Virus record (IMG/VR): IMGVR_UViG_2547132272_000001 | Span: 1-5,926 of that record | From: a virus | Taxonomy: Monodnaviria; Loebvirae; Hofneiviricota; Faserviricetes; Tubulavirales; Inoviridae | Length of the DNA stretch: 5,926 nt | Direction: 5' to 3' (one strand) | Part shown: positions 1,809-3,319 of the stretch, in pieces | Layout of the letters: the number at the start of each line of letters is the position of its first letter | How positions within the stretch are numbered: position 1 is the stretch's first letter | The notes under the pieces: generated by a model | Databases searched by the model: none | What the model was told of the DNA's origin: nothing | Seen by the model: the letters and a program-made list of their open reading frames with translations, nothing else | Translations under genes and position numbers: made by a program

Positions 1809-1858
1809 ATTAGTTTATATGACCTTTGGTGTGTTGTTGCATTTTTATGGGGATTGCT

Positions 1859-3319
1859 ATGCGCTTGGGCTGTAATTCAAGGTTTTCGGGGGTAACAATA
1901 ATTTTTTTATATATATTTATTACCCTTTATCCATTTTATTCATATGCTTTTTTACCTTTGCTTGCTGCCCGTTCTGTTCTGTCTACTGTTGTTAGTCGAG
2001 TTGTTGTTAATCGTGCTATGCAAAGTGCTGCTAACGATGCAGTATATTTGACTCTTGTAAATAATACCCGGCGCTCTGTAACTTCATCTATTATGAAAAA
2101 GGCGTCTTCTATATCGTCCAGCTCTTTTTATAGAGGGGCAGGTGGGGCTCTTACTTGGGCTGGCGTTGGTTATACTTCAGGAACTATTAGTGCAAATTAT
2201 TTTTCTGGAGATGATTATGTTGTTGCTACTTCTGGAAAACCTGATGGTAATGGAAAATATATTGTTACTGTAAATGGTATCGATTATGTAGCTGACTTTC
2301 TTCCTTCTGAAAGCTCGCCATTTATAGCTCTTGTTGGTAGTGATGTGTCTCAGGGGGCGACTATTGTTGAACAGAATAAAGTAACTTCTGAAATGGGGCC
2401 TTATTTTTATTATATAACTTCATCAAAAATAGCTTATGGTAGTTCTTCTTCTGTTGCTCAGGCTGTTCTTGCTGCCAAGGATTTTAGTGCTTCTTGTAAG
2501 GGGCGTGATAGCTGTACAGCCACTGCATCAATTAAATCCATTACAACATCCAGTCCTGTATCTGCTGCTTTAGTTGTCTATGATTTAGATGTTACTTTTA
2601 AAAATAGCAAAGGAGAAATGACAACCATTACAACACAACATAAATTTCAACTTAGTTTTAATTCTGATTATGTTCCTAAAGAAGAAAGCCCTACCGATTA
2701 TAAAGTGGCTTCTGATAAGGATGGTTTTTCAGCACTCGAAAAATTAAAAGATGTTTCTTTATCTTTGGATGAAGTTGCTTCTTTTATTAATCAGTTATTG
2801 TTAGATGCATCATCTCAGCCTGGTTATGATGGAATTCCTTTTTCTCCTTCAAATCCTGTTACTGGTTCTGAGATTTCAAAAGTATATCCTGATGCGAATA
2901 AACTCAATAAATTTGATTGGTTGTATCCATCACAAAATGGTGTTAATGGCGATATCAATATAAATGTTGATAATTCATCATCTAACCCTGATAGCAAACC
3001 TGACATACCTTCTGATGGCGTTATCAATGTTGATTTAGGCGATTATCCTGAACCAACAGAACCTGATATTTCCAATGTTCCTTCTGCATCTGAAATACTT
3101 CAGCCTATCGTTGATTTGTTTCCTTTTTTGAAGGGCTTTGATATTTCTAAATCTATGAGAGCATCAGTCTCTTGCCCAACTGCGTCTTTTGAGTTGTTTG
3201 ATAAGACTTATCATGTTGATACTCAATGTGTTTTATTTGAGCAGAACAGGGTGTTAATTCAGCTTGTATCTTCTATTGTTTGGGCGTTTATATCTCTTAG
3301 AATCATTTTGTCTGCGTGA
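1859..3319 (+). CDS. gIII: Adsorption / minor coat protein pIII (about 486 aa from ATG 1859). The N-terminal and central regions are divergent and Ser/Thr/Asp/Asn-rich; the C-terminal domain is conserved and ends in a membrane anchor
   Basis: A long ORF after the gVIII terminator. The C-terminal region SVSCPTASFELFDKTYHVDTQC...IVWAFISLRIILSA parallels the M13 pIII C-terminus (ECRPFVFSAGKPYEFSIDCDKINLFRGVFAFLLY...), with the same Cys...Cys spacing followed by a hydrophobic anchor. A signal-peptide-like stretch ...IIFLYIFITLYPFYSYA resembles the M13 pIII leader end PFYSHSA. The start is uncertain: the ORF track opens at TTG 1826, and ATGs lie at 1847 and 1859; 1859 has GGGGA 5 nt upstream. Confidence 0.75.
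   Translation: MRLGCNSRFSGVTIIFLYIFITLYPFYSYAFLPLLAARSVLSTVVSRVVVNRAMQSAANDAVYLTLVNNTRRSVTSSIMKKASSISSSSFYRGAGGALTWAGVGYTSGTISANYFSGDDYVVATSGKPDGNGKYIVTVNGIDYVADFLPSESSPFIALVGSDVSQGATIVEQNKVTSEMGPYFYYITSSKIAYGSSSSVAQAVLAAKDFSASCKGRDSCTATASIKSITTSSPVSAALVVYDLDVTFKNSKGEMTTITTQHKFQLSFNSDYVPKEESPTDYKVASDKDGFSALEKLKDVSLSLDEVASFINQLLLDASSQPGYDGIPFSPSNPVTGSEISKVYPDANKLNKFDWLYPSQNGVNGDININVDNSSSNPDSKPDIPSDGVINVDLGDYPEPTEPDISNVPSASEILQPIVDLFPFLKGFDISKSMRASVSCPTASFELFDKTYHVDTQCVLFEQNRVLIQLVSSIVWAFISLRIILSA
2948..3034 (+). repeat. Short imperfect direct repeat inside gIII, encoding G-D-I-N-I-N-V-D and D-G-V-I-N-V-D
   Basis: ggcgatatcaatataaatgttgat (2948-2971) and gatggcgttatcaatgttgat (3014-3034) share atcaat...gttgat. 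They lie in an Asp/Asn/Pro-rich stretch just upstream of the conserved C-terminal domain. Confidence 0.4.

Follow-up and report, generated by a model that had tools for sequence, protein, structure and literature searches.

The window, by which is meant the whole 5,926-nucleotide stretch of inovirus DNA that was analyzed, carries gIII between gVIII and gVI (DUF2523). The same gene order is found in the Ff phages, and the encoded protein also resembles Ff pIII in having a predicted N-terminal signal sequence and a C-terminal hydrophobic anchor. The pIII protein matches phrog_3942 (E 3e-146), while gVIII, directly upstream, matches phrog_2186, a 'virion structural protein' (E 2.7e-25). Between gVIII and gIII lies a terminator-like hairpin, placed like the central terminator of Ff, and after it comes a small open reading frame (ORF) that runs into gIII. 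Ff is not known to have a gene between gVIII and gIII. The window also contains gIII/gVI and gI/gIV overlaps. The features of the region are as follows.

1547 to 1768, plus strand: gVIII (major coat protein precursor, 73 aa), matching Pfam Phage_Coat_B at E 8e-4, below the family cut-off
1779 to 1800, plus strand: G+C-rich hairpin after gVIII, then a U-rich tract; 9-bp stem and GAAA loop, terminator-like
1806 to 1895, plus strand: putative small overlapping gene, 29 codons and TAA in the gIII +1 frame, MISLYDLWCVVAFLWGLLCAWAVIQGFRG
1826 to 1858, plus strand: in-frame stretch LVCCCIFMGIA, holding TTG 1826 and ATG 1847; an out-of-frame reading of the small gene
1849 to 1853, plus strand: gIII Shine-Dalgarno sequence GGGGA, made by Trp-Gly codons of the small gene
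1859 to 3319, plus strand: gIII (pIII-like minor coat and adsorption protein precursor), 486 aa and stop
1859 to 1948, plus strand: predicted Sec-type signal peptide of pIII, 30 aa, MRLGCNSRFSGVTIIFLYIFITLYPFYSYA
1949 to 2104, plus strand: conserved N-terminal segment of mature pIII (F31-A82), including a second hydrophobic stretch; two predicted helices
3248 to 3316, plus strand: C-terminal hydrophobic membrane anchor of pIII (…VLIQLVSSIVWAFISLRIILSA), from hydropathy

The hairpin has a dG of -14.7 kcal/mol and was left uncalled by a consensus terminator scan because the T run is interrupted. Among 54 distinct related loci, the median folding dG of the 58 nt that end with the small-ORF start codon is -15.8, versus -9.5 for shuffled sequences.

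These 54 loci derive from 40 IMG/VR contigs and 17 genome contigs, counted before duplicate removal. Since 38 of them were found with a pattern imposing a peptide motif, only about 10 independently found lineages, which are phylogenetically related to one another, constitute an unbiased test. A set of 40 distinct regions used for some codon counts consists of the 38 motif-pattern loci plus L054 and L055, which are E. coli prophages identified from DNA similarity. Two loci from a gI-based search (L082 and L084) were left out because the region was not in usable form, and a Planctomycetaceae MAG (L071) was discarded as a chance pattern match without ORF context. In INPHARED, megablast with the whole window matched just 165 nt of gIV, and tblastn with pIII gave only C-terminal similarity to two metagenomic inoviruses. 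E. coli prophage DNA shares 81-91% identity with the gII-gV module of the window, and related prophages occur in tandem adjoining hipBA in E. coli chromosomes. In having E. coli prophages as relatives, the window resembles UPphi, Ypfphi, and CUS-1, which are dif-integrating enterobacterial inoviruses (PMC7307601). The structural genes of UPphi are IKe-like and its g3p carries GGGES repeats (PMC7307601), whereas the pIII described here lacks GGGES repeats and belongs to phrog_3942.

The gIII frame contains an in-frame TGA (1820-1822), followed by TTG 1826, ATG 1847, and ATG 1859, and terminates at TGA 3317-3319. The initial annotation had located all three candidate starts correctly and considered the choice among them uncertain; comparative and Shine-Dalgarno evidence now single out ATG 1859, which is the best-supported start of gIII. 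It is the sole candidate with a properly spaced Shine-Dalgarno sequence (dG -5.5 kcal/mol, spacing 5 nt), and all 54 loci have a counterpart of this sequence at -4 or better (median -8.4). At the codon equivalent to ATG 1859, 48 of the 54 distinct loci have ATG and three have GTG, or 51 together. In the small ORF, the base at 1859 falls at the third, synonymous position of a Leu codon, and 35 of the 40 regions have A there; the third position of the neighboring small-ORF Leu codon in the same regions is G in 11, A in 13, and T in 16. The three loci that have TTG, ATC, or CTG in place of the start codon begin gIII elsewhere, two of them at or just after the stop codon of the small ORF. Starts at or just after the small-ORF stop take the form GGAGGGTAGATG in L066, GGAGGGTAAATG in L024 and L040, and an overlapping GTGA in L026. 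The locus with ATC (L006, of an Acinetobacter lineage) has its gIII start at an ATG two codons downstream. The PGAP and Logan gene callers place the starts of homologues at the ATG equivalent to 1859.

The small ORF spans the gIII Shine-Dalgarno sequence, the ATG, and the entire n-region of the pIII leader, and overlaps the first 12 gIII codons by 37 nt. Its product is a predicted single hydrophobic helix without a signal sequence (19-residue Kyte-Doolittle maximum 2.05), and some lineages have an acidic C-terminus (…LES, …LDG), so that it is not uniformly basic. An ORF with an ATG or GTG start and a stop codon is present in all related loci examined. Its length is 24-29 aa in 53 of the 54 distinct ATG-start loci, the sole exception being a 19-aa version (L050) with a 1-nt deletion relative to near-identical relatives; two further lineages, beyond these 54, use GTG. 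All 10 lineages found through pIII or gII/gI similarity, independently of the small ORF, carry it. Over a 15-codon core, these 10 lineages share 85% amino-acid identity when read in the small-ORF frame, 40% in that of gIII, and 44% in the remaining one. Pairwise nucleotide differences add up to 366 at third, 132 at first, and 68 at second positions of small-ORF codons, and within the core all 15 third-position columns vary, along with seven first-position and six second-position columns. The variation has a strict period of 3 and includes synonymous swaps of Leu, Ala, Gly, and Val codons in the small-ORF frame. This pattern argues strongly that the ORF is a conserved protein-coding gene, probably translated into a membrane peptide.

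The start codon of the small ORF, ATG 1806, lies 6 nt 3' of the hairpin, is paired in a weak outer stem, and lacks a Shine-Dalgarno sequence (-0.1 kcal/mol); such a sequence precedes the small ORF in only 10 of the 54 relatives. A 40-aa version beginning at ATG 1773 was rejected because an ATG 5' of the hairpin is not kept from lineage to lineage. Searches of Pfam, PHROG, NCBIfam, and PDB with the small gene returned nothing meaningful, and a profile search of PDB sequences gave no matches at E <= 10. A sub-threshold match to ArfB was set aside as generic hydrophobic similarity. With a 62-aa extended ORF as query, a large protein database gave only the near-identical 59-aa cluster to which that ORF belongs, and blastn of nt 1800-1900 against E. 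coli genomes gave no match, the query being too short for a database of that size. A literature search on the small-peptide motif found no paper. In homologous loci that have gene tables, the small gene is unannotated except for two over-extended calls that cover it, a 59-aa Logan call and a 40-aa GenBank 'hypothetical protein'.

Other readings of the overlap region place the start of pIII elsewhere or dispense with the small gene. Initiation upstream, at TTG 1826 or ATG 1847, would give a 34-41-residue leader with a hydrophobic extension (MVCCCIFMGIA...). The gIII frame is open from 1823, one gene caller began a homologue (P0005) at an upstream GTG, and the most divergent relative (L013/P0008) has its only canonical start near the beginning of the small ORF, which would produce a 38-residue leader with a hydrophobic extension. 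However, neither upstream codon has a Shine-Dalgarno sequence (dG +0.6 for TTG 1826, and -2.8 at a spacing of 15 for ATG 1847), the codon equivalent to 1847 is freely variable (ATG in 20, TTG in 19, CTG in 8, and GTG in 7 of the 54 loci), and the in-frame upstream stop shifts position between lineages. In addition, the residues upstream of ATG 1859 are a shifted reading of the small ORF, with the 40% identity of the gIII frame. Upstream initiation is thus quite unlikely, and LVCCCIFMGIA is most likely not translated within pIII. A start two codons downstream of ATG 1859, at TTG 1865 (MGCNSRFSG...), would share the Shine-Dalgarno sequence of ATG 1859 and has a counterpart in the Acinetobacter-lineage locus, where the ATG that follows ATC occupies exactly the equivalent position. 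Against it are the spacing of 11 nt and the weakness of TTG as a start codon; moreover, 10 of the 54 loci have the non-start CTG at the equivalent codon and one has TTA, which shows that no start is maintained there, and little probability attaches to its use.

The conserved block around the gIII start might instead be a nucleic-acid element, either a ribosome-binding or regulatory RNA structure or a DNA site, and not a gene. The block does hold the gIII Shine-Dalgarno sequence and ATG, which are themselves under selection, and the small ORF mostly lacks a Shine-Dalgarno sequence of its own, is below gene-caller size, and has no database family. A nucleic-acid element sits poorly with the period-3 variation and synonymous codon swaps, with a start and stop kept at 24-29 codons (apart from the one 19-codon exception) in more than 50 loci, and with conservation that reaches upstream of the Shine-Dalgarno sequence. 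No folding signal was detected beyond the gVIII hairpin (z = -0.21), nor was there a match in Rfam, and we judge this interpretation to be very improbable. A programmed -1 ribosomal frameshift within the overlap would provide some pIII with the helix of the small peptide at its N-terminus, since slipping back by one nucleotide moves a ribosome out of the small-ORF frame and into that of gIII. T is abundant in the overlap (GCA TTT TTA TGG) and one relative (L009) has T TTT TTG, but the canonical X XXY YYZ heptamer is absent from the window and none is conserved, no stimulatory structure was found, gIII keeps its own Shine-Dalgarno sequence and ATG in 51 of the 54 loci, and non-overlapping arrangements exist. 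Frameshifting therefore seems extremely improbable, and initiation of pIII at ATG 1859 within a probably translated small gene is the reading that we retain.

The pIII of f1 is made with a cleaved signal sequence (PMC10175506). Read from ATG 1859, the pIII leader of the window consists of an n-region (M1-G11) inside the overlap, an h-region (V12-F26; 19-residue Kyte-Doolittle maximum 1.79), and a c-region (Y27-S28-Y29-A30), with P25 at -6. The n-region is positively charged, carrying R2 and R8, and has no twin-arginine motif. The earlier description of this region as unusually long and Cys-containing is borne out, as the n-region has 11 residues compared with 3-4 in the gVIII and gIV leaders within the window. 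A lipoprotein lipobox (L-[AS]-[GA]-C) is absent from the end of the h-region, and the only Cys, C5 in R-L-G-C, precedes the h-region; its equivalent is Ser or Gly in relatives. The cleavage site, which had been regarded as uncertain, is placed after YSYA by the (-3,-1) rule, here scored with a rule of thumb of our own and not with SignalP. The best site lies between A30 and F31, with S28 and A30 at the key positions, P25 near -6, and a residue other than Pro (F31) at +1.

The predicted site falls at an equivalent place in most relatives. Among 47 distinct relatives, the median leader length is 30, the residue at -1 is A, S, or G (Ala in 36 of 47), and that at -3 is V, A, S, or I. The scoring put the site within the second hydrophobic stretch in three of the 47 (L008, L011, L051) and 5-8 residues upstream of an NP motif in L021, L039, and L068. 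An equivalent cut is predicted despite unrelated polar mature N-termini, as in ...SYAYA followed by ETWETLDK and ...SSGVHA followed by DAVTADG. Relatives in which gIII begins after the small ORF have 19-residue MK-type leaders, for example MKTLLIALLLSIISFYSYS before AENA, and the long n-region of the overlapping variants can therefore be attributed to the overlap. On these grounds the pIII leader is an ordinary Sec-type signal peptide with predicted cleavage, signal peptidase I most likely cutting between A30 and F31 (nt 1948/1949). In Ff, PFYSHS closes the leader and the mature protein begins with the Ala after it. An echo of Ff PFYSHSA had been noted in LYPFYSYA; the c-region PFYSYA does resemble PFYSHS, but the Ala belongs to the mature protein in Ff. 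The leader of the window also differs from that of Ff in its length (30 residues versus 18) and in its 11-residue n-region encoded in a gene overlap.

The leader is followed by a second hydrophobic stretch, FLPLLAARSVLSTVVSRVVV, at 1949-2008, which begins FLPLLAARSV. It had been described as fairly hydrophobic, and it is moderately so: hydropathy peaks at 1.59 over 19 residues, the hydrophobic run is broken by Arg at 38, 47, and 52, and no uncharged run exceeds 8 residues. AlphaFold2 predicts helices at 40-56 and 60-82, with a mean pLDDT of 77-87 in four 10-residue blocks over 41-80. Description of the stretch as an amphipathic helix was tried and dropped because the hydrophobic moment at 100 degrees is low (0.09-0.17). 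Residues R52, A53, and A57 are invariant across 15 homologues, and a start farther downstream, near MQSAAND or MKKASS, which had been put forward as an alternative, is excluded because the residues upstream of both, including these three, are conserved. The second stretch is the conserved, predicted helical N-terminus of the mature protein and is neither leader nor membrane span.

If the leader were not cleaved, pIII could begin with a membrane hairpin of two helices, the signal-like segment and the second stretch. Two hydrophobic segments do follow each other, the second close to the usual threshold of 1.6, and AlphaFold2 draws a single continuous helix through residues 6-36, but its confidence is below 50 for residues 24-38. 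Besides the three arginines and the short uncharged runs, relatives carry E, R, or K in the second stretch, and one (P0008) has about 40 polar residues between its leader and the corresponding segment. Small residues at -3 and -1 are retained at the junction across lineages, which is consistent with cleavage. A strong anchor is already present at the C-terminus, as in Ff pIII; it has the highest 19-residue hydropathy of the protein (2.09) and is the most conserved part of the family. An uncleaved hairpin is accordingly quite unlikely, and removal of the leader is preferred.

The mature N-terminus had been suspected to differ from that of Ff, and this was upheld. The pIII protein matched no Pfam family at E <= 0.01, its only match among PDB sequences was at chance level (E 0.17), and a Foldseek search of PDB with its AlphaFold2 model (mean pLDDT 65) gave nothing at E <= 0.001. 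Because no Pfam family matches, nothing identifies an N1 or N2 domain. The protein thus differs from Ff g3p in having no identified N1/N2 and no glycine-rich runs or linkers in its translation, and in having a conserved helical mature N-terminus.

The model that we consider highly probable accounts for the start and the leader together. Translation of pIII would begin at ATG 1859 using GGGGA at 1849-1853, and signal peptidase I would remove a 30-residue Sec-type leader between A30 and F31. The Shine-Dalgarno sequence, the ATG, and gIII codons 1-12 would sit inside a separate +1-frame gene of 29 codons for a small single-helix hydrophobic peptide. The leader would look atypical because this gene overlaps its n-region: selection would act on the small-gene frame, making the gIII n-region the product of a shifted reading, and the hydrophobic h-region would begin exactly where the overlap ends. 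The n-region would be polar and Arg-rich because CGC arises from TGC GCN and AGG from CAA GGN. The Cys codon TGT would be incidental, as the small gene has GCT GTA (Ala-Val) here, while GCA GTT in relatives gives AGT (Ser). The Trp codons (TGG) of the small gene, together with its Leu-Cys junction, would create the extra NTG codons in the gIII frame, those at 1847 and 1865 being due to Trp codons. Both the Cys and the surplus NTG codons are side effects of synonymous changes in the small gene. The oddities listed in the initial annotation are thus present, but their cause, the overlapping small gene at 1806-1895, had been missed.

Overlaps of this kind have parallels in Ff. At the gVII/gIX/gVIII junctions and the gI/gIV overlap, the downstream ribosome-binding site likewise lies inside the upstream coding sequence through a short out-of-frame overlap. 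The overlap described here differs from those of other single-stranded DNA phages in measuring 37 nt and covering a full signal-peptide n-region. The start of the small gene also recalls that of f1 gene VII, which, reportedly according to Ivey-Hoyle and Steege, has no functional Shine-Dalgarno sequence and depends on coupling to the upstream gene.

Ff pVII and pIX are tip proteins of 33 and 32 aa. In f1 they are small, hydrophobic, and single-helix, without a signal sequence (PMC10175506), and the small-ORF product resembles them in being 24-29 aa long, hydrophobic, probably single-helix, and without a signal sequence. It differs from them in the acidic C-terminus of some lineages and in its position after gVIII and the hairpin and not between gV and gVIII, and comparison with f1 pVII and pIX by hhalign found no similarity (probabilities 1.4% and 0.7%). 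We would guess that the small protein is a pVII/pIX-like inner-membrane protein that serves virion assembly or sits at the virion tip. Most relatives have a single small hydrophobic gene between gV and gVIII, and the guess is weakened because the small ORF is also carried by the Dulem and D_HF inoviruses, in which gVIII is already preceded by two small hydrophobic genes. A bolder and rather doubtful proposal is that the 24-29-residue peptide is an unrecognized essential component of the virion or of its assembly, a sixth structural or assembly membrane protein. It would be common to a large clade comprising inoviruses of Enterobacterales, Pasteurellaceae, and Acinetobacter and a Burkholderiaceae MAG. 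The gene would double as a platform for the gIII ribosome-binding site, and its low expression would be set by a Shine-Dalgarno-less start behind the gVIII hairpin.

The start and leader of gIII are now fixed, at the strength of the model above, for a widespread, uncharacterized inovirus clade that includes prophages of E. coli, Salmonella, Xenorhabdus, Providencia, Haemophilus, and Glaesserella. The strongly conserved small gene is uncalled in nearly all loci examined, probably on account of its extreme shortness and its overlap with gIII; almost no annotation records it and none names it. The known set of structural and assembly proteins of these phages may therefore be incomplete. For pIII display or host-range swaps in such phages, the overlapping frame must stay intact. 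More generally, an 'atypical' n-region of a signal peptide can signal a hidden overlapping gene.

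The window is most of one inovirus genome and carries the following genes.

85-1014, C-terminal part of gII, or gX
1028-1300, gV
1307-1537, plus strand, 76-aa ORF (phrog_3679)
1547-1768, gVIII
1806 (ATG) to 1893-1895 (TAA), small ORF in the gIII+1 frame, product MISLYDLWCVVAFLWGLLCAWAVIQGFRG
1826/1859-3319, long ORF taken as gIII
3316-3636, gVI (DUF2523)
3640-4710, gI (Zot)
to 5926, gIV (secretin)

Megablast of the whole window against INPHARED found no close relative among deposited phages. Positions 1-4899 of IMG/VR contig UViG_3300026224_000007 are 100% identical to window positions 1028-5926, and Salmonella enterica serovar Braenderup encodes a pIII (gIII product) 98% identical to the window's that is annotated as hypothetical. 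The 76-aa ORF, whose phrog is of unknown function, has a polar N-terminal part of 45 residues with two Cys and a C-terminal hydrophobic helix ending in a basic tail (...IAQVIRLVKNA). The start of gVI is ambiguous (GTG 3316, overlapping the gIII stop, versus ATG 3328 or 3331); no candidate has a good Shine-Dalgarno sequence, and relatives are called at 102 or 95 aa. The listed gIV start, ATG 4676, lies within gI and lacks a Shine-Dalgarno sequence; ATG 4712, 3' of the gI stop, has a weak one and a classic leader (MRKYLFLFALLFCANSFA/GK, slash marking the cut). NCBI gives gIV of the Salmonella relative 404 aa; the figure from other callers is 416 aa. Related prophages of E. coli PEC148 (L054, adjoining hipBA) and E. 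coli 300709 (L055, adjoining ydeT/ydeS) are integrated in tandem copies in the chromosomal dif region, which suggests that XerCD integrated them, as it does CTXphi, Ypfphi, and UPphi.

The translation of gIII starts at ATG 1859, and its product reads MRLGCNSRFSGVTIIFLYIFITLYPFYSYA, then FLPLLAARSVLSTVVSRVVV. The initial annotation had correctly placed TTG 1826, ATG 1847, and ATG 1859 in one frame, which is closed upstream by TGA 1820-1822, but the uncertainty that it attached to the start is not borne out, since both Shine-Dalgarno strength (pairing dG with the 16S rRNA 3' end) and codon conservation favor ATG 1859. This codon follows GGGGA at 1849-1853 (-5.5 kcal/mol, spacing 5 nt). TTG 1826 scores +0.6 kcal/mol with no usable spacing, ATG 1847 scores -2.8 kcal/mol at a spacing of 15 nt, and TTG 1865 shares the site of ATG 1859 (-5.5 kcal/mol) at 11 nt. 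A protein similarity search recovered pIII homologues from eight lineages (27-67% identity), nearly all of which open with M-R-[LVM]-G-x-x-S-R at the equivalent ATG. Of 54 distinct related loci, 48 have ATG and 3 have GTG as the equivalent codon, whose Shine-Dalgarno pairing is no weaker than -4 kcal/mol in any of the 54; CTG stands at the 1847 equivalent in eight loci and at the 1865 equivalent in ten. The ATG equivalent to 1859 is also PGAP's choice in the E. coli prophage homologues. Initiation at a downstream Met, near MQSAAND or MKKASS, is excluded because R52, A53, and A57, which precede those codons, are invariant.

Around the gIII start the DNA is far better conserved than pIII itself (consensus TGGGGnyTnyTATGCGCnTGGGCnGTnAT). 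In the gIII+1 frame this block reads ...F-L-W-G-L-L-C-A-W-A-V-I-Q-G-[LF]-x-x-stop, with an ATG 8 to 14 codons upstream in each lineage. Codon-position variation in this frame was compared across ten lineages found independently of the ORF (eight through pIII, two through gII/gI DNA similarity). In its 15-codon core, third positions vary in 15 of 15 columns, first positions in 7, and second positions in 6, and summed pairwise differences at codon positions 3, 1, and 2 are 366, 132, and 68. Translated in the small-ORF frame, the core is 85% identical at the amino acid level; the gIII frame gives 40% and the third frame 44%. When WGLLCAWAVI was searched for as a degenerate DNA pattern, 40 inovirus-sized IMG/VR contigs matched; species-representative genomes hold 17 genuine matches against about 0.14 expected by chance according to our estimate. 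The hosts comprise Xenorhabdus, Lelliottia, Providencia, Arsenophonus, Pantoea, Kluyvera, Scandinavium, Symbiopectobacterium, Haemophilus, Glaesserella, and a Burkholderiaceae MAG, and nine metagenomic GenBank inoviruses carry more divergent versions. The ORF spans 24 to 29 codons, mostly 27, in 53 of 54 ATG-started loci (19 in L050).

The oddities of gIII are the footprint of this conserved, presumably translated overlapping small gene. Its Trp-Gly codon pair is the gIII Shine-Dalgarno sequence, and its second Leu codon (xTA) joined to Cys (TGy) forms the gIII ATG. Across 40 distinct regions (38 found by motif pattern, plus L054 and L055 by DNA similarity), that Leu codon ends in A in 35; the third base of the neighboring Leu codon is unconstrained (G 11, A 13, T 16). 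Read in the shifted frame, C-A-W-A-V-I-Q-G becomes M-R-[LVM]-G-[SCG]-[NYH]-S-[RG], the two leader Arg residues arising from TGC/GCN and CAA/GGN, and Cys5 of the window's pIII is due solely to the Ala codon being GCT, not GCA. ATG 1847 and TTG 1865 are Leu/Ala codon tails plus TGG codons. The small ORF ends where the h-region of pIII (V12 onward) begins. Loci L024, L040, and L066 have GGA GGG TAA/TAG as the end of the small ORF, with gIII starting directly after it and a leader of 19 residues (MKTLLIALLLSIISFYSYS/AENA); in L026 the gIII start codon is a GTG that overlaps the small-ORF stop. As a natural control, the non-overlapping variants show that the 11-residue n-region is a trait of the overlapping arrangement and not of the protein family. 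The most divergent relative (L013, pIII homologue P0008) has its sole canonical gIII start close to where the small ORF opens; nearly all of the small gene is thus overlapped, and the 38-residue leader has an additional hydrophobic N-terminal segment.

The gIII leader is of the normal Sec type and is probably cleaved. In the product from ATG 1859, R2 and R8 make the n-region basic, the h-region extends from V12 to F26, and P25, S28, and A30 occupy -6, -3, and -1; there is neither a lipobox (C5 precedes the h-region) nor a twin-arginine motif. By a simple (-3,-1) score the best site lies between A30 and F31, where we infer that the window's pIII is cleaved, and for 47 distinct relatives the predicted leader has a median of 30 residues, Ala occupying -1 in 36 of them. 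Relatives with unrelated, polar mature pIII have an equivalent predicted cut (...SYAYA/ETWETLDK, ...SSGVHA/DAVTADG), which shows the leader to be a discrete module. The Ff (f1/fd/M13) pIII leader ends PFYSHS/A, the window's PFYSYA, and those of the non-overlapping variants SFYSYS/A or SFSSYS/A. That otherwise unrelated pIII proteins share an F-Y-S-[YH]-[SA] c-region may not be mere chance.

We read the second hydrophobic stretch, FLPLLAARSVLSTVVSRVVVNRA, as a helical N-terminal element of mature pIII. It is conserved within the phrog_3942 family, whose match to the window's pIII runs from residue 30 on, and it opens NP... right after the predicted cut in 19 of 47 relatives. Arg 38, 47, and 52 lie within it, its 19-residue hydropathy is just 1.59 versus 2.09 for the C-terminal anchor, and in P0008 some 40 polar residues intervene between it and the leader. 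AlphaFold2 (15 sequences, mean pLDDT 65) models residues 40-56 and 60-82 as helices (pLDDT 77-87 when averaged in 10-residue blocks over 41-80), with low confidence for residues 24-38; Foldseek against the PDB (E <= 0.001) found no structural neighbor. The expectation that mature pIII departs from the Ff paradigm was right, in that it matches no Pfam family, and hence has no recognizable N1 or N2 domain, and its translation contains no glycine linkers.

The small-ORF product is predicted to form one hydrophobic helix and to lack a signal sequence, a description also given of f1 pVII (33 aa) and pIX (32 aa) (PMC10175506). The 76-aa ORF looks like an enlarged pVII/pIX-type protein in place of the two Ff genes. 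Since the gV-gVIII interval of most relatives holds a single small hydrophobic gene, the small ORF could encode the second tip protein; however, its product lacks sequence similarity to pVII or pIX, its C-terminus is acidic in some lineages, and Dulem and D_HF inoviruses, which also have the small ORF, carry two small genes upstream of gVIII. In the metagenomic inoviruses L074 (OR148968.1) and L076 (PP511699.1), at locus nt 920-1442, an extra 29-34-aa hydrophobic gene is annotated between gV and the 66-69-aa gene, and the small ORF before gIII is present as well; thus the number of small hydrophobic genes varies within the clade. The small-ORF ATG of 44 of 54 lineages both lacks a Shine-Dalgarno sequence and lies directly 3' of the U-tract of the gVIII hairpin; a strong one precedes 9 of 12 members of the 24-25-aa class (MWD..., MTWQ..., MSWD...). 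The hairpin (1779-1800) has a G-rich, Shine-Dalgarno-like 5' arm and a 3' arm (CCCUCCUUA) that mimics the 16S rRNA 3' end.

The 24-29-aa forms are absent among the 15 billion proteins of one collection, where the ORF is represented solely by an unnamed, over-extended 59-aa call. An extended 40-aa version is a hypothetical protein in one GenBank record, PGAP omits the ORF from the E. coli prophage homologues, and a literature search for the peptide motif found no paper. The atypical gIII start and leader described in the initial annotation are real but largely explained by the overlapping small gene. Named by no source and left out of nearly all annotations, this gene represents a family that is new but whose kind is known: small hydrophobic proteins of inoviruses and overlapping genes of phages.
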